Source of the DNA: Betaproteobacteria bacterium
GTDB lineage: Bacteria > Pseudomonadota > Gammaproteobacteria > Burkholderiales > UBA3065
Assembly (NCBI GenBank): GCA_027490755.1
Contig: JAIXXL010000037.1
Coordinates: 4,352-68,351, forward strand
DNA: 64,000 bases
Direction of reading: 5' to 3'
Shown here: piece after piece, positions 3,202 to 61,752 of the stretch
Layout of the letters: each line of letters opens with the position of its first letter
Position numbering within the stretch: position 1 is the stretch's first letter
Program-made: the position numbers and the translations under genes
Notes under the pieces: model-generated
Database searches by the model: none
Told to the model about the DNA's origin: nothing
Seen by the model: only the letters and a program-made list of their open reading frames with translations

Positions 3202-3737
3202 CGCAAGGCGAGACACTGCGCAGCGAGCGTCGCCTGAAGAAAATCACCTTCGAGTATGACCCGCGCGAAGACAGGCTGCTGGCGCGCGTGCTCGCCAACG
3301 ATGGCGCAACCAGCGCCCTCTGGGTCACGCAGCGCCTGTCGCTGCGCCTGGTGCAAGCGCTGCGCAGCCACCTCGACCGCAGCGCTGCTGCCGCCAGCCC
3401 GCACGACCCGGAAGCGCTGCTCAGCTTCCGCCACGAGGCAGCGGTGCAGCGCCGCGAACAGCACGCCCCGGTGCCCGAGTCCGGCGGCGGCCAGCACCCG
3501 CTGCTTGACAGCATCGACGTGCGCCTGCTCGGAAACCGGACAGACCTGGTGCTGAACCTGCCCGACGGACAGGCCGTTCTGTCGCTGTCCCCGGACCATG
3601 TCTGGCAGCTGCTGCAGATCCTGCTGGACATCTTCCGTCGGGGCGAGTGGCCGGTCGATGCGTGGCCGGCATGGATGGTCAACCGTACCGGGGCCGCGAG
3701 TGGCGCCCCGTCCGGCAGCCTGCCTTCCCTGCATTGA
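3198..3737 (+). CDS. hypothetical protein, translationally coupled to the T1SS adaptor
   Basis: 179-aa ORF whose ATG overlaps the adaptor stop (ATGA). No recognisable motif, signal peptide or TM segment. Confidence 0.45.
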   Translation: MTQGETLRSERRLKKITFEYDPREDRLLARVLANDGATSALWVTQRLSLRLVQALRSHLDRSAAAASPHDPEALLSFRHEAAVQRREQHAPVPESGGGQHPLLDSIDVRLLGNRTDLVLNLPDGQAVLSLSPDHVWQLLQILLDIFRRGEWPVDAWPAWMVNRTGAASGAPSGSLPSLH

Positions 3738-8344: not shown

Positions 8345-9976
8345 TCAGGGCCGCGCGTCCGTCACGACCTCGATGCGCGGCAGGCGATCCGGCAGCGCCG
8401 CCCCGGCCTGCAGGAACCGCTCCGTCGCCTCCACATCCAGCGGTCCCGTGCGCCGATGGCGTCCCTCGGCAAGGACGGTAAAACCGTCGCCTCCGTCGGC
8501 CAGGAAAGCATTCACCGTCACCCGGTAAGCGCGGCCGCTCCGAACCGGCTCGCCATGCAGCACCAGGCCTGTCACGCGCTGGCCCGGAGCGGCCGCCGGA
8601 TCCAGACGGTAGCGAAGTCCTGCACTGGGCTGCAGCAGCGACAGTCGGTCAGCGCGGACCTGCTGCTCCAGCAGCGCCTTGATCTGCGCGCCGGTCAATG
8701 TCATGGTCACCAGCGCATTCGAGAACGGCTGCATCGTCACCAGATCCCGAAAGCGCACGTCGCAGGGGCCGCTGTCGCACGGCAGGTCCGAGCGCAGTCC
8801 CCCGGCATTCATGAAGGCCACCTGCGCGCCGCCGCTGTCCCGGCTGCGCGTGGCCGCGAGCTGGGTGTCAGCCACCAGCGCGCCGAGCGTCGAGTTGGCG
8901 CCCTCGACCGGCTTGCGGTCGAAGCCGGCCGCGACCTGGCCGACCACACGCTCGGCCAGCGGACGCGCCAGTGCAGTGTAATGATCGACCAGCGCCGCTA
9001 CCGATGTCTCGGCCGCGCCCTCCGGCGCAGACAAGGCCAGATTTTCGAAACTCGAGCGAGCCAGGTCGATTTCGCCCGTGGCACGGTCGAGTGCGAGGTC
9101 GATGCGCGACAGCATCCGCGCATAGGAACCGGCCTGCATCACCAGACGCCCGTCCCGCAGGCAGCGATAGGCCTGATGGGTATGCCCGCTGAGCACGACC
9201 TTGACCTCGGGATCAAGGCGTGCGGCAATCTCGAACACCCGGCCGCGCGCGCTCGGACACGACAGCGCATCATCGTCGCGATTGACGAAGCCGCCCTCGT
9301 GGATGATGACGACAAACGCGCGCACGCCCTCGCGACGCAGCTGCCGCACGACACGATTGACCGCAACCGCCTCGTCGCCGAAGCGCAGGCCGCGCACGCC
9401 GGACGGCGGCACCAGGGAAGGCGTGCTGCGCGTGACCACGCCAATGAAGGCAACGCGCACGTCACCGTAGCTGCGTACCTCGAACGGCGGCAGCACCGGG
9501 CGGCCGTCGGCGCCGGTCACGTTAGCGCCCAGCATGGAAAACCGCGCCCCGTTGAAATGGCCGGCCGGGCCGCGGCAGGATTGCGAGCGCTCCTGCCCGC
9601 CGGCGCTGGCGCAGCCGCCCTGCCTCAGCCGCAGCAGCTCGGCAAGGCCGCGGTCGAACTCGTGGTTGCCGACGACGGCGATGTCCAGCCCGAGCAGATT
9701 CATCGCCTCGATCGTCGGCTCGTCGCGGAACAGCGACGACTCCAGCGGCGAAGCGCCGACCATGTCGCCGGCCGACACCGTGATGTGATGCGGCGCCGAC
9801 GCGCGCAGCCGCGCGAGGTGATGCTCGAGGCTCACGGCTCCGTGCGGCGCCACGTAGCCGTGAAAGTCATTGAACGCCAGCACGCGCAGCATGACCGCCT
9901 CGCCCGCCGGCGCCGGGCCTGCGAGCAAGGACAGGGACAGCAAGGCAATAGCACGCAGCGAGCATTGAAAACCCAT
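8345..9976 (-). CDS. bifunctional metallophosphatase / 5'-nucleotidase (UshA-like), periplasmic
   Basis: 543 aa. Signal peptide 'MGFQCSLRAIALLSLSLLAGPAPA', 'VLAFNDFHG', 'GDMVGASP', 'GNHEFD', and a C-terminal 5'-nucleotidase-type domain. Confidence 0.85.
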   Translation of the reverse strand: MGFQCSLRAIALLSLSLLAGPAPAGEAVMLRVLAFNDFHGYVAPHGAVSLEHHLARLRASAPHHITVSAGDMVGASPLESSLFRDEPTIEAMNLLGLDIAVVGNHEFDRGLAELLRLRQGGCASAGGQERSQSCRGPAGHFNGARFSMLGANVTGADGRPVLPPFEVRSYGDVRVAFIGVVTRSTPSLVPPSGVRGLRFGDEAVAVNRVVRQLRREGVRAFVVIIHEGGFVNRDDDALSCPSARGRVFEIAARLDPEVKVVLSGHTHQAYRCLRDGRLVMQAGSYARMLSRIDLALDRATGEIDLARSSFENLALSAPEGAAETSVAALVDHYTALARPLAERVVGQVAAGFDRKPVEGANSTLGALVADTQLAATRSRDSGGAQVAFMNAGGLRSDLPCDSGPCDVRFRDLVTMQPFSNALVTMTLTGAQIKALLEQQVRADRLSLLQPSAGLRYRLDPAAAPGQRVTGLVLHGEPVRSGRAYRVTVNAFLADGGDGFTVLAEGRHRRTGPLDVEATERFLQAGAALPDRLPRIEVVTDARP

Positions 9977-9994
9977 GGCACTCCCTCCGGTCGC

Positions 9995-10558
9995 TCAGTG
10001 CTGCGGCTGCAAGTCGAGCAGCAGCAGCTTGACGTCATCCAGCAGGCGCTCGGCGTGGTCCTGCAACACGTTGTAGAGAAGCAGCCCGATCAGGGCCACC
10101 GCGATTCCCAGCGCCGTGGCCAGCAGTGCGACGCCGATGCCTGCGCTGACGGCTTGCGCATCCGATATTCCCGAGCGCGCCAGGGCGCTGAAGGTATCGA
10201 ATATGCCGAGGATCGTCCCCAGCAGGCCCATCAGCGGCGCGGCCGTGATCACGGTATCGAAGATCCACAGATGGCGATTCATCCTGCGCTGCGCGTCAAT
10301 GAAGATCTTCTCCGTGAGGTCGCCGGCGCGCGCCGCATTCGGCGCCTCGGTGAGGCCCTGGGCCGCGGCCGACAGCAGGGTCGATGGCACCGATCCCGGG
10401 CGCGCCATGGCCTGCGCCGCGCCCGGGCCCGTCTGCCGGAGTGCCACGAAATCTTTCGTGCAGGTCCAGTAGAACAGGCCGCGCTCGACGGCAAAGTAAA
10501 TCACTGCCGCCAGCGCCGCGTACAGGAGAATGAAGGTCAGTTCGTGCAAATGCCCCAT
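9995..10558 (-). CDS. exbB: MotA/TolQ/ExbB proton-channel protein
   Basis: 187 aa. 'AAPLMGLLGTILGIFDTF' and 'GIGVALLATALGIAVALIGLLLYN', typical of the ExbB/TolQ C-terminal half. Confidence 0.85.
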   Translation of the reverse strand: MGHLHELTFILLYAALAAVIYFAVERGLFYWTCTKDFVALRQTGPGAAQAMARPGSVPSTLLSAAAQGLTEAPNAARAGDLTEKIFIDAQRRMNRHLWIFDTVITAAPLMGLLGTILGIFDTFSALARSGISDAQAVSAGIGVALLATALGIAVALIGLLLYNVLQDHAERLLDDVKLLLLDLQPQH

Positions 10559-10570
10559 GTCGAGTCCCGA

Positions 10571-12955
10571 TCAGAAGTCGGACGACAAGGTCACGCCGAC
10601 AAAGCGCGGAGCGCCGACGTAATATGCCGGCGCGCGTCCGCCTGCGCCAAGGGCGCGCGTCGTGAACAGGCTGCCGCTGCCGGAGTTGATGCGAAGGTAC
10701 TCCTCGTCGAGCAGGTTCTGCACGTTCAGGCGCACGGTCGGGTTCTTGAAGAACATGCTCGATTCCATGCGGTAGCCGGCGGTCAGGTTCAGCATGGTGT
10801 AGGCATCGAGGCTCTCGTCATTGACCAGCGTCGAGAAGACTTTGCCGGTGTACTTGGCCTGCAGCGAGCCGAAGAACGGGCCATCGACATAGTTGAGCGC
10901 CAGTCCGGCCAGCCAGTTCGGCGTGTCCGGCAGCTGCTTGCCGGCGGTGGGCTCGAAGGCTGCGCTCCCGGTCTGCAAGTTCGACTGCATCTCCGACTTC
11001 AGGTAAGTCAGCGAACCGTACATCGACCAGTTGCCGGCCAGGCGCACGCCGGATTCCAGCTCGGCGCCGTGCGTCTTCACGTCGCCGACATTGATGTCGG
11101 TGGTGAAGGCCGATACCGGGTCGAAGGCCGAAGCGATGCGGTTCTTGTAGTCGACGTAAAACACCGAACCGGACACCGTGAACAGCTCGTTGGCCATGCG
11201 GTAGCCGAGATCGAAGTTGTTCGAGGTCTCGGCAGCCACCACAGGGTTGGCGATGGTGGCGCCGGTCAGCACGCCGTTCACGTAGGTGCCGCCGCGGGCC
11301 AGGTTCTGGAGCGAGAAATTGCCGGGCGCCTTGAAATTCTGGGCCGCGTTGAAGAATACCGAATGGCCGTTGGCGAGCACGAACCGGATGCCGAGGTTGG
11401 GCAGCAGCTTGCTGTAAGTCCGGTCGATCTTGTAGCCGGTGCCGCTGTTGCCGCCGCTGGTCGAGCTCGTGCCCTCGTTGGCGAAGTTGGTGAAGTCGCG
11501 GTTGATGCTGGCGTTCTTTACGCCGAGCACCACGTTGAGCCGGTCGGACATCAGCGAAATGCTGTCCTGCACGAAGACCGAATGCGCGGTGCTGATCGTC
11601 AGCTGGTCGCGCCCCTGGTAAGGCGTGCCGTCGGCGCGGCGCAGGTAGAAATTCGAGTCGCGCAGCCACGGGTCATCGGCACGGCCGGTGTTGTCGAAGC
11701 GGACCGCGGGCTGGGTCTGGCGATGGTCGGCGCGCTCGTACCAGACGCCGACGTTGAACAAGTGGTTGTCGAGCTGGTAGGTGGATTTCAGTGTGATGCC
11801 CGGACGGTGCGTGCGGGTGACGCTGCTGCGGTAGACCATCACCGTGTCGAGGGTGTCGCCATCGCCGTTGATGTCGCGCAGGCCGCCGCCGAGGCGGGTG
11901 GTCGCCGCGCTCTCGGTCAGCCGGGTCAGCTGTTCGCCGCCTGTGCCATAGCCGTACCAGTAATAGGGCTCGGCCGACAGCGCGAGGCGATCATTCACGC
12001 GGTGCGAGAGGCGCGCCGTCCACAACGAGTTCTCGAACGGGTTGATCGCGAAGCGGTAGTAGCCATCGGCCGGCGTCGTCTCGGACTGTGCGGTGCCGTT
12101 CACGCCAGCCAGATGCTGCGGCGGCAGCGCACCGTAGTCGAGCATGCGGCCCGAGGCAGCGATCTGCGCCTTGGTCAGCGTGCGGTAGTTGTTGTTCACC
12201 GCGTAGTTGTACAGGAAGCTGGTCGACAGCTTCGTGCCGGCACCGAAATTCATCTCGGCGCCGACATCGACGTGGTCGCGATCCGCGCCGCCGGGGCCCT
12301 TGAACTTGTCCACCACCGACTTCGAATACGACATGAAGGCCTTGAACTGGTTCTCGCCGATCGCGCCCGTATCCACGCGCACGAAGCTGCGGCGGTAATT
12401 GAGGCCGCCGACCGACTGCGCGACGCGTGCGTTGAAGCGGTCTTTCGGGCCGCAGGTAACGAGACCGACATTGCCGCCGGTGGCGCCGACGTGCGGCGCG
12501 TCGGTATCTGCCGAGCCCTGCGTGATGAACAACTCGCAGAGGTTTTCAGTATCGGTATATTCCTGCGGATAGACGGCAAAGTTGCCGGAGTCATTCACCG
12601 GCGCGCCATTGATCGTAAAACCGAGCTGGTCGCTGTTGAAGCCGCGCACGCGCAAGCCACCGCCGAACAGGCCCGTGGCGTCGTAGCTGAAGGTGTGCAC
12701 GCCCGGCAGCAGCTCCAGCGCCTGGTAGGGATTGCTGGAGGGGTTCAGGTTGTCGAGCAGCTTGCGATTGACCGAGCTGCGAGCCTTGGGCGTATCTTCC
12801 GGAACGATCAGGCCGGTATCCTGACCTCCCTCTTCCGTGCCCTGCACGACGACCTTGCCGACATTGGTCGCGGCAGTCTGTGCGTGGAGCGCCGTCGCTG
12901 CGAACAGCAAGCTGACGAGGGTGGCGATTCGGGTGAGCGGTTGGTTTGTTGTCAT
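10571..12955 (-). CDS. TonB-dependent outer-membrane receptor
   Basis: Start taken at 'MTTNQPLTRIATLVSLLFAATALHA' (AAGGA RBS); the ORF track begins at 13009. Has a plug ('VVVQGTEE...', 'LPGVHTF', 'LRVRGF') and ends '...RFVGVTLSSDF' with a terminal Phe. Confidence 0.9.
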   Translation of the reverse strand: MTTNQPLTRIATLVSLLFAATALHAQTAATNVGKVVVQGTEEGGQDTGLIVPEDTPKARSSVNRKLLDNLNPSSNPYQALELLPGVHTFSYDATGLFGGGLRVRGFNSDQLGFTINGAPVNDSGNFAVYPQEYTDTENLCELFITQGSADTDAPHVGATGGNVGLVTCGPKDRFNARVAQSVGGLNYRRSFVRVDTGAIGENQFKAFMSYSKSVVDKFKGPGGADRDHVDVGAEMNFGAGTKLSTSFLYNYAVNNNYRTLTKAQIAASGRMLDYGALPPQHLAGVNGTAQSETTPADGYYRFAINPFENSLWTARLSHRVNDRLALSAEPYYWYGYGTGGEQLTRLTESAATTRLGGGLRDINGDGDTLDTVMVYRSSVTRTHRPGITLKSTYQLDNHLFNVGVWYERADHRQTQPAVRFDNTGRADDPWLRDSNFYLRRADGTPYQGRDQLTISTAHSVFVQDSISLMSDRLNVVLGVKNASINRDFTNFANEGTSSTSGGNSGTGYKIDRTYSKLLPNLGIRFVLANGHSVFFNAAQNFKAPGNFSLQNLARGGTYVNGVLTGATIANPVVAAETSNNFDLGYRMANELFTVSGSVFYVDYKNRIASAFDPVSAFTTDINVGDVKTHGAELESGVRLAGNWSMYGSLTYLKSEMQSNLQTGSAAFEPTAGKQLPDTPNWLAGLALNYVDGPFFGSLQAKYTGKVFSTLVNDESLDAYTMLNLTAGYRMESSMFFKNPTVRLNVQNLLDEEYLRINSGSGSLFTTRALGAGGRAPAYYVGAPRFVGVTLSSDF

Positions 12956-13021
12956 GGTCGTCCTTTGGGAGTGGCCTGAAGTCGGAAAAGAGAACAATCG
13001 CTGCTGCATGGGCCGCCCGGC

Positions 13022-14017
13022 TCAGCCGGGCGGCATGAATTCGAGTTGTGCGCTGAAGCGGTGCTGCTCCTGGCCGGGCCACGCGTCCTCCGGCATGGCC
13101 GGAAAGCTCGCGCGGCGCACGGTCGACAGCGCTGCCTTGTCGAGCAATATCGAAGGCGACGGTTCGGCCACGCCACAGTCGATCAGCGCGCCGCTGCGCG
13201 AGAGCACGAACCACACCTTCACGATGCCGGTCGGGCGCTGCTGGCTGGCCTCGCGCCCGGTCGGGTAACGCTTGTTCGCCTCCAGCGCCGCATGGATGCG
13301 GCCGACAAAACTGTCCTCGGTACCGCCGCGCGAGGCGTTCCGCTCCGGCGGCGGCGATGGCCGCTCGGGAGCCCGCTCCGCGAGCTTCTCGGCGGGGCGA
13401 TCGGCGGGGCGCTCTGCCGGCCGCTCGCTGCTGCGCTCCGGGCTGCGCTCGGCTTTCGCGGCGGCCCGCTCCGCCGGACGCTCGCTGCGCCGATCCGGGC
13501 CGGGATCGCTCTTGTCGATCGCCTTGTCGATCGCCTTGTCGACCGCCTTGTCGACCACCCGCTCTGGCTGCACGGCTGGCGCAGCGGCGGGCTCCGGCGT
13601 CGGGGCGACGCTTCGTTCCGGGACCGCCGCACGCGGCGGCTCGGCCGGACGCTCCGGCTGGCGCTCTGCCGGTCGCTCGGCCGGCGGCGGCGGTGCGACC
13701 GGGGCACGTGCAACCGGCGGCGTCTCCATCGGCGGGCTGGGTGGCCTGATTTCCTTCGGCGCTTCGGTCTGCGGCGGCGCATTCACCGGCGGCGGTTCGC
13801 TCAGCAGTTGCATGGCCAACGCTTCCACCGGCGGCTCGGGGCTGGCGGCAGGCGGTCGCCACGACGTCATTGCGGCCAGCGCGGCGACCGTGACCAGCGC
13901 CGACCACGCATGGCGGCTGGCATCGGCACGAGGCTCGAACAGGCGGTCGATCGCTGGCACCGGAATGGCCCTGTCAATGCTTCTTAAGCGCCGACAGGTA
14001 GATCGAATGCCAGCCAT
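13022..14017 (-). CDS. tonB: energy transducer TonB
   Basis: 331 aa. N-terminal TM 'WSALVTVAALAAM', a long Pro/Glu/Ala-rich spacer ('ERPAERQPERPAEPP', 'DKAVDKAIDKAIDKS') and a C-terminal TonB domain ('YPTGREASQQRPTGIVKVWFVLSRSGALIDCGVAEPS'). The start overlaps exbD by 44 nt and is uncertain. Confidence 0.8.
   Translation of the reverse strand: MAGIRSTCRRLRSIDRAIPVPAIDRLFEPRADASRHAWSALVTVAALAAMTSWRPPAASPEPPVEALAMQLLSEPPPVNAPPQTEAPKEIRPPSPPMETPPVARAPVAPPPPAERPAERQPERPAEPPRAAVPERSVAPTPEPAAAPAVQPERVVDKAVDKAIDKAIDKSDPGPDRRSERPAERAAAKAERSPERSSERPAERPADRPAEKLAERAPERPSPPPERNASRGGTEDSFVGRIHAALEANKRYPTGREASQQRPTGIVKVWFVLSRSGALIDCGVAEPSPSILLDKAALSTVRRASFPAMPEDAWPGQEQHRFSAQLEFMPPG
13511..13558. repeat. 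4 x 12-bp tandem repeat inside tonB (encodes DKA[VI] x 4)
   Basis: cttgtcgatcgc / cttgtcgatcgc / cttgtcgaccgc / cttgtcgaccac read directly from the sequence. Confidence 0.9.
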
Positions 14018-14384
14018 CTCCCCTCAGTTCATCCATCACGTCGATCATTTGCTGGACTTCGACGGCCTTGTCCGCATTCACGATGATCCGGGCGCTGCGG
14101 TCGCCGTGCGCCTTCTCGCCGACCAGGGCCGCGACGCGGCCCGGCAGGGCATCGCTGCCATCGACCGCCACGCGCTCGCGCGACAGCGTCACCACTACGC
14201 GCTTGCTGTCCGGGGGGATGGCTGAGGTAAACGACGATGACGGCTGCCGGGTCTGCAAGCCGAAGCCCGGGATGACGTTCAGGCTCAGCAGCACGAAGAA
14301 GACCAACAGGAACATCATCACGTCGATCATCGGGATGATCTCGATGCGGCCTTTCTTCTGCCGTTTGCTGCCCCAGTTGCGCAT
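13974..14384 (-). CDS. exbD: biopolymer transport protein ExbD/TolR
   Basis: 136 aa. 'EIIPMIDVMMFLLVFFVL' TM, plus 'IIVNADKAVEVQQMIDVMDELR'. Confidence 0.85.
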   Translation of the reverse strand: MRNWGSKRQKKGRIEIIPMIDVMMFLLVFFVLLSLNVIPGFGLQTRQPSSSFTSAIPPDSKRVVVTLSRERVAVDGSDALPGRVAALVGEKAHGDRSARIIVNADKAVEVQQMIDVMDELRGDGWHSIYLSALKKH

Positions 14385-14471
14385 GTGTCCGCCTCGTTCA
14401 CGCTCGTCGTCAGGAGCGTCGAATCTTATTTTTGGAATATTTCAGGCGAATGGCAGTTGCGTTAAAGCAAT

Positions 14472-14489
14472 ATGAAAAACTTATGACAG
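14472..14489 (-). promoter_or_regulatory. Pho-box-like direct repeat upstream of the exbD operon
   Basis: The minus strand reads CTGTCATAAGTTTTTCAT, i.e. 7-bp CTGTCAT + 4-bp A/T spacer + TTTTCAT (an 11-bp period), 88-105 nt upstream of the exbD ATG. The first half matches the E. coli Pho box half-site exactly. The second half matches only in TCAT. Confidence 0.35.
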
Positions 14490-14547: not shown

Positions 14548-15438
14548 TCAGCTGTCGACGACGGTCAGCAGCGAATGCAGCACCGAGCGGGTATCGACGA
14601 AGGCCGCAGCGGACAGCGCGGCGGCCGCCAGTTCATCGGCCGCTACGTCCCCGCCGTCCCCGTCGGCCGCGACCGACGCATCGCCGGCGGCCTCGGCAAG
14701 GAGGGCCGCATCCATCACCGGCGCCGCGCCGTCCGGCAGAGCGGTGCCGGTCTCGCCAGGGGCGATGTGCGCGCCAGCTGCCGTCGGTGCCGCCGGCGTA
14801 TCGATGGCCGCGCGCAGCTGGGCCTGCAGGCCCGGCGACAACTCGGCGGCACGCGCCACCAGCGGCGCCGCCTCGGCCAGGTCGAAGCCGAACAGCCACG
14901 CATGGCGACGGATCGACGCCGCGTCGGATCCGGCATCGCGCAGCAGCAGGCCGTGCGCATCGACCAGCTTCAGGCCGGCATCGACCACGGCGCCGTCCTC
15001 GTCCTTCAGCTGCCGGAGTGCGAACTGCCCGGAGCGGGCCAGCGTGTCCTGCGCGCCGAGATATGTCGCGTCATCGCGGCGCGGCCGGCCCGCCTCGCCG
15101 TACATCTGGCCGGTGGCCCGGCGGGCGGCCGTCACCGGATCGCCGGAGGCCATGATGGCCTGCCAGTTGCGCGTGTCGGTGTTGGAGCCGACCACGCCAT
15201 AGACGAGCTCGGCCGCATCCTCGAACGACGCGCCGCTGGCGTCCATGAAGGTTTTCAGATCCGGCCGGTGCGCCGACGACTTGTCGGCCGAGGTCAGCAG
15301 CGAGTCCGGAATCGGTGTGGCCGCAACGGATTGCAGGGCATCGGCAAAGCGGCCATCGTCGCCGGCGGCGGCGTTCGCGGCCGGCGTGGCATGCGCCAGT
15401 GTCGAGGCACGCGCCGCTGTCGAGGTGCTGAGTTCCAT
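14548..15438 (-). CDS. hypothetical Ala-rich protein
   Basis: Start taken at 'MELSTSTAARAS' (GGAG about 11 nt upstream); the ORF track begins at 15540. No motif recognised. Confidence 0.45.
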   Translation of the reverse strand: MELSTSTAARASTLAHATPAANAAAGDDGRFADALQSVAATPIPDSLLTSADKSSAHRPDLKTFMDASGASFEDAAELVYGVVGSNTDTRNWQAIMASGDPVTAARRATGQMYGEAGRPRRDDATYLGAQDTLARSGQFALRQLKDEDGAVVDAGLKLVDAHGLLLRDAGSDAASIRRHAWLFGFDLAEAAPLVARAAELSPGLQAQLRAAIDTPAAPTAAGAHIAPGETGTALPDGAAPVMDAALLAEAAGDASVAADGDGGDVAADELAAAALSAAAFVDTRSVLHSLLTVVDS

Positions 15439-15532: not shown

Positions 15533-15631
15533 GTCATCAAACGGCCATCATCGCGTCACGACGAGGTCACAATGAAGTCACGACGGCGTCACGCTATCGT
15601 CACGCCATCGTCATGGGTCGGTCATGTTTGA
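15533..15631 (+). promoter_or_regulatory. array of nine 11-bp-phased GTCA(C/T) cores (candidate PhoB-type direct-repeat operator)
   Basis: Units: gtcatcaaacg, gccatcatcgc, gtcacgacgag, gtcacaatgaa, gtcacgacggc, gtcacgctatc, gtcacgccatc, gtcatgggtcg, gtcatgtttga. Cores start at 15533, 15544, 15555, 15566, 15577, 15588, 15599, 15610 and 15621. The array ends 36 nt before the ATG at 15668 (AAGGAG RBS at 15656-15661). Confidence 0.55.
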
Positions 15632-15667
15632 GGAGTCCAATGTCGGGTTTCCAACAAGGAGACGCGC

Positions 15668-17563
15668 ATGGCACTTTCACTCACCGGCAACAACACGCAC
15701 AAGCTGTCGTCACTCGGCAGCATCGCGCTCAGCGGCGCGGAGATCTCGGCCTATGACCCGGCCAGCAAGCAGTTCTATGTGACCACGCCCAGCAGCGGCA
15801 TTCATCTGGTGTCTGCCGCCGACCCGACCAACCTGCAGCGTGTCGCGACGATCGATTTCTCGTCGGCGGCCTTCTCGTCGTTCGGCAACGACGTCAACCG
15901 CGTGGCCGTGCGCAATGGCGTCGTGGCCGTCGCCGTCGCCAATCCGGTCAAGACCGAGCCGGGCCGCGTGTTCCTGCTCGATGCCGCCGGCAACCTGCTC
16001 AAGAGCGTCACCGTCGGCGCGCTGCCGGACATGCTGACCTTCACGCCCGACGGCAGGAAGATCCTCGTCGCCAACGAAGGCGAGCGCAACGGCGCCAACG
16101 GCGAGACCGATGCCAAGGGCTCGGTCAGCATCATCGACATCGCGAAAGGCGCGGCCCGGGCCACGGTCACGACCGTCGACTTCACCGTCTTCGACGGGCT
16201 CGAGACCCAGCTGCGCACGGCCGGCGTGCGCATCTTCAACGGCAAATCGGCCAGCCTCGACCTCGAGCCCGAGTACATCGCCGTCTCGCCCGACGGCAAA
16301 AAGGCCTTCGTCGCGCTGCAGGAGGCCAACGCCGTCGCGGTGCTCGACCTCGGCCTGAAGGAGTTCCGCGAGATCGTGCCGCTGGGCCTGAAGTCCTTCC
16401 AGGGCCTGCTCGCCGACTTCAGCGACCGCGACAGCAGCACCGGCGGCAACATCTACGCTCCGCGCTCGGACCTGCCGGTCTTCGGCATGTACATGCCGGA
16501 TGCGATTGCGGCCTTCACCAGCAAGGGCAAAACCTACTACGCGATCGCCAACGAGGGCGACAGCCGCGACGACTTCATGAATCCCGACGAGACCATCCGC
16601 ATCGGCAGCGCGACGCTCGACGCGACGCTGTTCCCGGACGCCGCCACGCTCAAGGGCAACGGCGTGCTCGGCCGGCTGAACGTGGCCAACCCGGCCACCG
16701 CCGGCCGCTACATCAGCGGCGACACCGATGGCGACGGCGACCTCGACCAGCTCGTCATGTACGGCGCCCGCTCGTTCTCCATCCTCGACGCCAAGGGCAA
16801 GATGGTATTCGACAGCGGCGACCACATCGAGCGCTTCATCGCCACCCAGGGCACGTTCGTCTCCGGCCAGGCCAACACCGGCGCCTTCGACGACAACCGC
16901 AGCGACGACAAGGGCCCCGAGCCGGAGGGCATCACCACGGCCGTGGTCGACGGGCGCACGCTGGTCTTCGTCGGCATCGAGCGCGGCGGCGGCGGCACCA
17001 TGGTCTATGACGCCACCGACGTCGGCAACGTGCAGTTCGTCACCTATGCGCGCAACATGGCCGATGTCTCGCCGGAGGGGCTGACCTTCGTCTCCGCGGC
17101 CGACAGCCCGACCGGGCAGGCGCTGCTGGCGCTGACCAACGAGGTCTCGCTGACGCTGACCGTCTACGGACTGACCAGCGTCAAGAGCGGAACCGAGGGC
17201 AACGATGTCCTGCGCGCCACCGCCGGCGTGGACGAACTGACCGGCGCCGCCGGCCGCGACCGTTTCGTGTTCGGCGACGCCAAGCCGCTGGCGCAGGCCG
17301 CCAGCGTGCGCGACATCGTCACCGATTTCGTGCGCGGCACCGACCGCATCGACCTGCGGACCATCGATGCGGACAGCACGAAGGCGGGCAACCAGTCGTT
17401 CAAGCTGGTGACGGCATTCGACGGGAAGGCGGGGCAGCTGGTCGCCGCGCAGGCGGGCGGCAACACGCTGCTGTCGGGCGACGTCAATGGCGACGGCCGC
17501 GCCGACTTCGTGATCCAGCTCACCGGCGTGAGCGCATTCGGCGCCGCCGACGTGATGCTGTGA
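15668..17563 (+). CDS. secreted beta-propeller protein (choice-of-anchor-I / phytase-like, often annotated alkaline phosphatase) with a serralysin-type C-terminal Ca-binding secretion domain
   Basis: 631 aa. 'LTFTPDGRKILVANEGE', 'EPEYIAVSPDGKKAFVALQEANAVAVLDL', 'YAIANEGDSRD', 'DDKGPEPEGITT', 'SPEGLTFVSAADSPTGQALLALTNEVSLTLTVY', then 'GTEGNDVLRATAGVDELTGAAGRDRFVFGD ... DRIDLRTIDADSTKAGNQSFKLV ... GDVNGDGRADFVIQLTGVSAFGAADVML'. No signal peptide. Confidence 0.8.
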   Translation: MALSLTGNNTHKLSSLGSIALSGAEISAYDPASKQFYVTTPSSGIHLVSAADPTNLQRVATIDFSSAAFSSFGNDVNRVAVRNGVVAVAVANPVKTEPGRVFLLDAAGNLLKSVTVGALPDMLTFTPDGRKILVANEGERNGANGETDAKGSVSIIDIAKGAARATVTTVDFTVFDGLETQLRTAGVRIFNGKSASLDLEPEYIAVSPDGKKAFVALQEANAVAVLDLGLKEFREIVPLGLKSFQGLLADFSDRDSSTGGNIYAPRSDLPVFGMYMPDAIAAFTSKGKTYYAIANEGDSRDDFMNPDETIRIGSATLDATLFPDAATLKGNGVLGRLNVANPATAGRYISGDTDGDGDLDQLVMYGARSFSILDAKGKMVFDSGDHIERFIATQGTFVSGQANTGAFDDNRSDDKGPEPEGITTAVVDGRTLVFVGIERGGGGTMVYDATDVGNVQFVTYARNMADVSPEGLTFVSAADSPTGQALLALTNEVSLTLTVYGLTSVKSGTEGNDVLRATAGVDELTGAAGRDRFVFGDAKPLAQAASVRDIVTDFVRGTDRIDLRTIDADSTKAGNQSFKLVTAFDGKAGQLVAAQAGGNTLLSGDVNGDGRADFVIQLTGVSAFGAADVML

Positions 17564-60285: not shown

Positions 60286-61470
60286 TTACCGTGCCCAGCG
60301 CAGGATTCCGTAAGCTTTCAAGTCGCTGCTGATGTTCTTGAAGTAAACGTAGGCGGCTTCGTCGCCGTTGCCATTGAGGGCGCCGGAGACGGCGACATTC
60401 GAGGCGTCGCGGTCGGGGGCGAGGCGGCCGGTGCTGCCGATGCCGCCCTTGCTGTAGAGGACGTGGTCCTGCCCCTCGAACTCCCAGCGGAAGCTGGTCG
60501 CGTAGCGCATCTTGTCGAAGTTGACCGAGAAGTTGGCGGCCGAGACGGCGGCCGGCTCGTAGTTGCCCTGGCTGCGGCCGAAGGCCTGGCTTTCCTGCAG
60601 CCGGAACGAGACGAAGCCGGTGGTCGGCAGGCGCGCGGCCTCGACGGCGCGGAACAGCACCAGCGCATCGTTCTGCCCCACCACTTCATAGCCGGCCGGC
60701 ACGCTGGCGTGGCCCGACCAGCGGCCCCACATCAGGCTGGGGCTGCCGCCCATGCCGTCGGGCAGCCCGGCGCTGGCGGCGCCGTCGCGGTTGACTTTGG
60801 GTTCTTCGGGGCGCGGCAGCTCGAACGGCAGGCGGCCGTTGGGCGGCGCCACCAGCACCGGCGCGGCCGTGCCCTTGACTTCGAGGTAGTTGCCGGTCAG
60901 CGAGCCGACGAGTTCGCGCGCGGCCGTGCCGCCGCAGGGGCCCAGGGCGGCGCGCGCGCAGTCGTCGCCAAACGGCGAGACGACGACGGCGCCCTGCTGG
61001 ACGGCCACGCGCGTCAGCGCGTCGCGCGCCTGCACGAGGAAATCGGTGCCGCGAATGCCGATGGCGGCCACCGGCGTATTGACGCGGAAGTTGTCTTTGG
61101 CGGCCTGGCCGGCGCGCCCGGTGATCAGGCGCGCCACGCCCTTGGAGAGCTGGAAGCGCACGCGGTTGGCAGCCGGGTTGGCCGCGTCGAACGCATACTG
61201 CTCGATGGCCAGCGACGAGTTCGGGCGCACGCTGACGAAGGCGTCGTCGACGAAGCGCAGGTGGACATGGCCGTTGGCGCCGGTGACGATGGTCTGGCCG
61301 GCGGCAATGCCGTCATTCTTGCGCACCGGGGTGCCGTCGGCCAGCCGGGCGTCGCCAATGGCAAACAGCACGCGCCCGACCGGCTCGGCCGCGCCGACGA
61401 GCGCCGGCAGCAGGCCGGCACAGGCGGCCAATGCCAGCAGAACGACACGAATCGGGGCTGCAAATGTCAT
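60286..61470 (-). CDS. FecR-domain periplasmic/exported protein
   Basis: Start taken at 'MTFAAPIRVVLLALAACAGLLPALVGA' (signal peptide; track start 61581). 'GRVLFAIGDARLADGTPVRKNDGIAAGQTIVTGANGHVHLRFVDDAFVSVRPNSSL' (FecR). 'GIRGTDFLV'. Confidence 0.75.
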   Translation of the reverse strand: MTFAAPIRVVLLALAACAGLLPALVGAAEPVGRVLFAIGDARLADGTPVRKNDGIAAGQTIVTGANGHVHLRFVDDAFVSVRPNSSLAIEQYAFDAANPAANRVRFQLSKGVARLITGRAGQAAKDNFRVNTPVAAIGIRGTDFLVQARDALTRVAVQQGAVVVSPFGDDCARAALGPCGGTAARELVGSLTGNYLEVKGTAAPVLVAPPNGRLPFELPRPEEPKVNRDGAASAGLPDGMGGSPSLMWGRWSGHASVPAGYEVVGQNDALVLFRAVEAARLPTTGFVSFRLQESQAFGRSQGNYEPAAVSAANFSVNFDKMRYATSFRWEFEGQDHVLYSKGGIGSTGRLAPDRDASNVAVSGALNGNGDEAAYVYFKNISSDLKAYGILRWAR

Positions 61471-61752
61471 GGTGCGCGGGTTTTCCGGTGAGGCGGCACC
61501 GCTTGCACGGCACCGAATGCCCGAGCGGCTCGGCACGCGTTGCGCGCGCTGCCACCGACGGACTCCTGTACAGAACAACACTATGACAAATTAACATGAA
61601 GCAACTGTGACACAGCTAACAATTCTTCATGCAACAACGAAAGAAGCACGGCCGGCCTGCTTGTCAAAAGCAGAATTGCCTTTTTAAAACAAGGGCTTGC
61701 CTATCCGGTGCCGCCGCAGGCGGCGGCCGCATTCGCTTATACAAACCGTTTG

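Follow-up and report, generated by a model that had tools for sequence, protein, structure and literature searches.

PhoB binds at tandem repeats of 11 bp, in each of which a TGTCA tract is accompanied by A/T-rich bases at the minor-groove positions (PMC4447250, PMC4415409, PMC2648988). A Pho box is defined by at least two direct repeats at 11-bp periodicity (PMC4415409, PMC4447250), with CTGTCAT as the 7-bp consensus of each repeat, and G or C at the minor-groove positions has been reported to lower affinity in E. coli without abolishing binding (PMC4447250). The boxes described in the literature examined usually comprise two or four units; longer ones are the seven direct-repeat units put forward for ugp of E. 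coli and the eight described at phoRP of Streptomyces natalensis (PMC2275107). In the PhoP operators of Streptomyces, core units nucleate a cooperative binding that extends to weaker units (PMC2275107). For the cyanobacterial PhoB, the reported site is a row of three repeats built on a conserved TTAA core (PMC11126600).

The window investigated here, i.e. the whole 64-kb stretch of DNA that was analysed, originates from a freshwater MAG and contains a nine-unit array of 11-bp direct repeats on the + strand (15533-15631), which we propose to be a multi-unit PhoB operator, based on the positions of its units, the chance expectation, the register found in orthologues and the identity of its cores. 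The cores start at 15533 (GTCAT), 15544 (GCCAT), 15555, 15566, 15577, 15588 and 15599 (all GTCAC), and 15610 and 15621 (both GTCAT), all in coding-strand orientation and at an exact spacing of 11 bp. The earlier note, made from the sequence alone, had listed nine cores at this phase, and every coordinate was reproduced from the sequence and by script. Eight of the nine units carry GTCAY (seven of them consecutively) and one carries GCCAT; core position 1 is G throughout and 35 of the 36 GTCA bases are intact, while the 5′ T of TGTCA is absent from all nine. The pattern GTCAY-N6-GTCAY occurs six times on both strands of the window, each time inside the array, against an expectation of 0.36 and a maximum of two in 100 dinucleotide shuffles; the phase of the array is far beyond chance.

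Mean pairwise identity is 0.94 for the cores versus 0.27 for the 6-nt spacers, the latter value being the random expectation at this base composition. These spacers, which correspond to the minor-groove segments, have a G+C content of 57%, unlike the A/T-rich consensus. The earlier note had stated that all spacers differ and that the array is no simple tandem duplication. The first statement is correct, and a recent simple tandem duplication was rejected as the whole explanation because spacer identity is at the random level; units 6 and 7 (spacers GCTATC and GCCATC), however, have five of six spacer bases in common and are the only clearly recent copies. They form a zone of recent growth on the + strand (GTCACGCTATC, GTCACGCCATC; 15587-15609), for which Tandem Repeats Finder reported 93% matches over 15587-15613, and within the array this program found only sub-blocks, with 75-93% matches. 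As an account of origin the denial of duplication did not hold, since unit duplication did occur and a natural 10-unit allele is present (see below). A coding repeat was rejected, in agreement with the earlier note, because 11 is not divisible by three and the array lies between genes. Plasmid or phage iterons, for which repeats of about 17-22 bp beside a replication initiator gene were taken as criterion, were rejected on the 11-bp unit, the random spacers and the lack of a rep gene nearby. A terminator-like hairpin on the minus strand (15579-15593) was set aside as a by-product of the repeats.

Ten nucleotides separate the end of the last core (15625) from TCCAAT, a predicted -10 hexamer (15636-15641, + strand) that is conserved in the orthologous promoters and placed at the spacing seen in E. 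coli pstS. The start codon (15668) lies 26 nt after this hexamer and 36 nt after the end of the array, transcription would start near 15648, and a ribosome-binding site AAGGAG, also conserved in orthologues, is present at 15657-15662 (+ strand). The distance of about 36 nt and the AAGGAG had already been pointed out, and the -10-like hexamer fits between array and start codon. No sigma-70 -35/-10 pair and no -35 element were found in the promoter region, as expected for an activator-dependent promoter. Read in the same register, the pstS promoter of E. coli K-12 consists of GTCAT, GTCAT, TACAT and GTCAC, followed by 10 nt (CTGTTTGTCC) and TATTTT, which we take to be its -10 hexamer. Judged by sequence, the array matches a textbook PhoB promoter in orientation, phase and distance to the predicted -10 hexamer.

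Like the PhoB boxes of E. coli (four units at pstS, multiple boxes at ugpB), the array is thus composed of 11-bp direct repeats whose GTCAY cores lie on the coding strand, and, like pstS, it has its proximal core 10 nt from the -10 hexamer and lacks a -35 element (PMC4447250; PMC4415409), the box being expected in the place of that element and about 10 bp before the -10. It differs from them in having nine to ten contiguous units versus four at pstS and seven proposed for ugp (PMC2275107), in lacking the 5′ T, in its G+C-rich minor-groove segments and in a unit number that is naturally polymorphic. With the class III complex operators of Streptomyces PhoP it shares a large number of 11-nt units, up to six to eight in those operators (PMC2275107), but these belong to another regulator clade, their core is GTTCACC instead of GTCAY, and their extension units are poorly conserved, whereas all nine cores of the array are near-perfect. 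The actinomycete PhoP PHO box itself (11-nt unit, core GTTCACC; PMC4415409, PMC2275107) was rejected as an identification in view of the GTCAY cores and of the host, which is Gram-negative according to its TonB, ExbBD and T1SS genes. The SphR/PhoB boxes of cyanobacteria occupy an equivalent place upstream of choice-of-anchor I homologues and have the same 11-bp spacing (PMC11126600), but have a TTAA core and usually three units. The element is of a known kind. With nine to ten near-perfect units it is longer than the arrays of seven or eight described before, so that the description of nine units as unusually long was right with respect to the record but has to be read against the precedent of other long arrays (PMC2275107). 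Should it be confirmed, it would surpass in length every contiguous Pho operator described in the literature examined.

The array is, we think, likely to be an extended operator of PhoB or of an orthologue, which would drive a -35-less promoter of a secreted choice-of-anchor I gene. The suggestion of an extended Pho-box array had already been made in the earlier note, and it is now well supported, at the level of sequence comparison, by orientation, 11-bp phase and -10 spacing, and also by the orthologous cores, a change of motif in cyanobacteria and a second operator in the window, described below. While anatomy, geometry, conservation and polymorphism of the array are direct observations, we infer PhoB binding, phosphate control and a role for the extra units. 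Under phosphate limitation PhoB~P would bind head-to-tail on one face of the helix, with one monomer per 11-bp unit, and from the proximal unit, 10 nt before the predicted -10 hexamer, PhoB would be able to make contact with sigma-70 and bring RNA polymerase to the promoter. The upstream units combine perfect cores with G+C-rich minor-groove segments, and these segments, together with the missing 5′ T, suggest that each of them binds weakly (PMC4447250). Since single units would be weak, many phased units may compensate through cooperative loading, as in the complex operators of Streptomyces (PMC2275107). The upstream units would then probably add cooperative occupancy, leading to a lower PhoB~P threshold or a higher output and in this way setting the timing or strength of induction.

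The gene downstream of the array (15668-17563, + strand) encodes a choice-of-anchor I beta-propeller protein of 631 aa with a serralysin-type RTX/T1SS C-terminal tail (PF22494, 1.5e-98; NF038117, 2.1e-146; PF08548), here annotated as a putative secreted phosphoesterase. Many T1SS components and RTX substrates are encoded in the rest of the window. Some choice-of-anchor I relatives are fused to 5′-nucleotidase/metallophosphatase domains (P0051, P0114), and a separate 5′-nucleotidase gene is found a few kb from the choice-of-anchor I gene both in the window and in L088, a relative at 80% protein identity (711-2342, within 4 kb). These fusions and neighbouring genes suggest that the family acts on nucleotides or phosphoesters. 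Comparison of the protein with solved structures gave matches to the RTX tail and to generic propeller repeats only. A literature search on “choice-of-anchor I” returned only papers on MSP130, none of them on phosphate; choice-of-anchor I is MSP130-related (PMC11878542), these proteins being bacterial relatives of the animal MSP130 biomineralisation proteins.

A search for homologous proteins yielded relatives of 58-80% identity with the same architecture, whose contigs were compared. The identical protein is encoded on seven contigs, all of which carry the identical 9-unit array. Each orthologous promoter was anchored solely on the -10-like hexamer T[CTG][CGT]AAT, after which the 11-bp register was read upstream. 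This hexamer is conserved in ten orthologous promoters. In nine, its distance to the ATG is 25-26 nt; in the remaining one, L099, it reads TCTAAT and lies 37 nt before the ATG. The ten promoters (62-80% protein identity) have three to six GTCAY-type units in the same register, with conserved cores and spacers that are not conserved. At the register positions nearest the hexamer in nine relatives, a perfect GTCAY was present in 21 of 54 cases, versus about 0.1 expected. Four units were read in L088 and L089 (80% and 78% protein identity), six in L091 (74%), four strong and two weak ones in L092 (70%), about five in L001 (68%), five each in L093 (67%), L100 and L103 (both 65%), and three in L099 (62%), from Pseudomethylobacillus aquaticus, whose protein was named “alkaline phosphatase” by its source. 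The proximal unit is usually a degenerate GAAAC in these promoters, and TTCAT or TTCAC is found in a few units. In L091, the two distal units (GTCATcaaatg TTCATccgtcc) resemble units 1-2 of the window array. Locus L001 (CAZTIF010000007.1) is titled “uncultured Bifidobacterium sp.”, but its 65% G+C, its PhoB-type boxes and a protein with an RTX/T1SS tail make it look proteobacterial, and the Bifidobacterium bin label is probably wrong. Phased units are conserved upstream of the orthologues of a gene whose product, a putative enzyme, would be of the phosphate-scavenging type expected of a Pho target.

The number of units also varies between alleles of the locus itself. Nine units were found in runs X1-X4 and in loci L081-L087. 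A 10-unit allele, in which an 11-bp insertion (CGTCACGCTAT) behind 15586 represents an exact extra copy of unit 6, was present in a freshwater contig of run X7 and in a 170-nt groundwater contig of run X9, from a different study, and a loose contig end in run X5 is compatible with it. The contigs of runs X5 and X6 break inside the array, and no sequence over the array was found in runs X10, X12, X15, X17 and X18. Between the 9- and 10-unit alleles, five of six SNPs within the array fall in spacers, a split that by itself does not reach significance (p=0.16); the remaining one (15622 T>A) turns the proximal core into GACAT. The array grew from an ancestral operator of four to six units by slipped-strand gain of single 11-bp units: the exact duplication of unit 6 shows growth by slippage, the existence of both alleles shows that growth is still ongoing, and the gain of whole units keeps the helical phase.

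This polymorphism is open to a more modest interpretation, according to which the working Pho box consists of the two to four promoter-proximal units and the distal ones are neutral by-products of slippage, without regulatory effect. The variable number of nine or ten units, the near-identity of units 6 and 7, the contig breaks within the array and the close relatives that function with four units are all in line with it. However, neutral copies would not be expected to retain 35 of 36 GTCA bases next to random spacers, and distal units 1-2, being common to the array and its 74% relative L091, are old and have been retained. The avoidance of cores by the allelic SNPs points in the same direction, although not significantly alone. 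Neutrality of the distal units is, in our opinion, unlikely.

If the extra units do contribute to regulation, the number of PhoB half-sites might act as an evolvable tuning knob, by which co-existing strains would differ heritably in the phosphate threshold or strength of secretion. This remains a tentative proposal, which compares co-existing freshwater strains (nine versus ten units) and relatives (three to six units). In contingency loci, the unit number of short tandem repeats in a promoter differs between strains through slippage, and the classical repeats of 1-7 bp alter spacer length or reading frame. The array resembles these loci in that its unit number varies between strains by slippage, but here the unit is a whole 11-bp regulator half-site and helical phase is kept on gain or loss. 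If true, the tuning knob would be a contingency-like mechanism acting via the copy number of response-regulator sites. The series of 3, 4, 5, 6, 9 and 10 units among alleles and orthologues, which includes variation within a population, represents a natural experiment that could reveal how half-site number sets the threshold and output of a promoter regulated by a two-component system.

Eighty choice-of-anchor I homologue loci from the genome collection were compared in order to place the array in the wider family. A 3-unit phased site on the coding strand and within 200 bp of the start was present in 11 of 26 non-cyanobacterial homologues at a within-locus empirical p≤0.05, with about 1.3 expected. 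As a control that is independent of base composition, the spacing was varied from 7 to 15 bp: 11 bp was uniquely the best spacing in 10 of the 26 non-cyanobacterial loci and it came out best for 18 of the 44 cyanobacterial loci, for which a TTAA-core motif was used, while every other spacing was best in zero to three loci. Within-locus p-values for the cyanobacterial motif are inflated by the A/T-rich intergenic DNA, and for this reason the spacing control was relied on instead. The cyanobacterial choice-of-anchor I genes (loci L008-L077) are often preceded by three TTAA-core repeats of the SphR/PhoB type at 11-bp spacing, such as GTTAACCATATCTTAAAGAAAGCTTATC in L073. The motif in front of these genes thus changes with the Pho regulator of the phylum, which argues for PhoB and against another OmpR-family regulator. 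By this comparison, the choice-of-anchor I family, so far uncharacterised, would belong to the Pho regulon of Proteobacteria as well as of Cyanobacteria, and this assignment points to a phosphate-scavenging role of its members.

A second operator was identified in the window on the minus strand (14433-14489; composite score 19/25), with five phased units and AT-rich spacers: CTGTCATaagt TTTTCATattg CTTTAACgcaa CTGCCATtcgc CTGAAATattc. The full CTGTCAT is present here, and a predicted -10 hexamer TAAGAT (14423-14428, minus strand) follows 10 nt after the proximal GAAAT core. This operator precedes an operon (8345-14384, minus strand; Pfam) of exbD, tonB, a TonB-dependent receptor gene, exbB and a 5′-nucleotidase gene, an order that continues with an RTX-tailed S1 protease gene and is located beyond the divergent gene discussed below. 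A composite filter, consisting of five phased cores with a score of at least 16/25 and a -10-like hexamer placed exactly 10 nt downstream of the proximal core, matched only two sites on both strands of the window, the array (25) and the exbD operator (19), and in 200 first-order Markov simulations of the window the score never rose above 17. When a four-unit filter (at least 15/20) was applied to about 90 fetched loci, all seven matches were choice-of-anchor I promoters. On this shared operator geometry, the same regulator probably controls the secreted putative phosphoesterase and the TonB uptake system ending in a periplasmic 5′-nucleotidase. The two would form a coherent phosphate-scavenging unit. 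Elsewhere in the window, a Pho-like pair on the minus strand (TGTCACagttgCTTCAT, with TGTCAT 13 bp further on; 61583-61611) was observed just upstream of a FecR-like gene (60286-61581), too near to its start codon for a standard promoter.

These data also bear on the identity of the regulator. Many members of the OmpR/PhoB family bind direct repeats of pentamers or hexamers at 10-11-bp spacing that replace the -35 element, and the array could in principle be the operator of another such regulator that uses 11-bp direct repeats and responds to a non-phosphate signal, for which its departure from the 5′ T and A/T-rich spacers of the E. coli Pho box leaves room. CreB is an example, as its cre-tag is TTCAC-N6-TTCAC and the few TTCAT or TTCAC units in orthologous promoters lean towards a CreB-like protein; however, the cre-tag has T at core position 1, where the array has G in all nine units, and the geometry of the array equals that of E. 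coli pstS. Beyond CreB, the TTAA repeats at the cyanobacterial homologues tie the gene family to the Pho regulator specifically (PMC11126600), and a canonical CTGTCAT box is present at the neighbouring 5′-nucleotidase operon. The scanned ORFs of the window, which was annotated only in part at 34-58 kb, did not include a response-regulator gene. Control by a different family member is, on this evidence, quite improbable, and PhoB or its orthologue is the preferred regulator.

The 229-bp intergenic region that holds the array separates the choice-of-anchor I gene from a divergent ORF of 296 aa (14548-15438, minus strand), for which no family match was obtained in Pfam or NCBIfam. Two exact contigs from metatranscriptome runs X13 and X14 lie inside the two genes and show in situ transcription only. 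A family-less protein of about 300 aa is encoded beside the choice-of-anchor I gene, usually divergently, down to the relatives at 62% identity: homologues of the divergent ORF are its neighbours in L081-L087, L088 (2497-3435), L091 (372-1253) and L099 (2658-3563). This protein may be a conserved partner of choice-of-anchor I. The earlier note had considered that the divergent gene might share the array, which found no support: in L088 the array and the divergent gene are set apart by an FG-GAP gene together with a REP hairpin, and the array is still directly upstream of the choice-of-anchor I gene, so that it is to be assigned to the + strand gene. A role as a bidirectional or repressive element, serving mainly the divergent gene or silencing the locus by wrapping DNA round a regulator oligomer, is very improbable for this same reason and because all orthologues keep the register fixed with respect to the + strand gene's -10 hexamer, even though the array lies between divergent genes, the pair is conserved in L091 and L099 and some E. 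coli promoters are repressed by high PhoB~P (PMC4447250). The hairpin in L088 (5850-5925), an inverted repeat of the REP type (GGGACACTCACTCTG ... CAGAGTGAGTGTCCC), immediately precedes the Pho boxes.

Finally, a scan of metagenomes for arrays of at least five perfect units returned at least 120 stretches. Among the matches listed, nearly all were simple tandem repeats (spacer identity 0.7-1.0) or came from unrelated contexts, and these listed matches provided no independent link of extended arrays to phosphate genes. Four of the loci (L116, L151, L179 and L222) have G+C-rich arrays of 5-10 GTCAC units with 11-bp spacing and heterogeneous spacers in unannotated, unrelated contexts, some of which may be inside coding sequence. 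Only L144 (JACXTT010066448.1), among the matches listed, resembled another Pho-type array: on its minus strand (about 3344-3400) five perfect GTCAY units with a spacer identity of 0.20 are located about 70 nt upstream of a gene for a 143-aa protein with a signal peptide, and this array may be another extended Pho-type operator.
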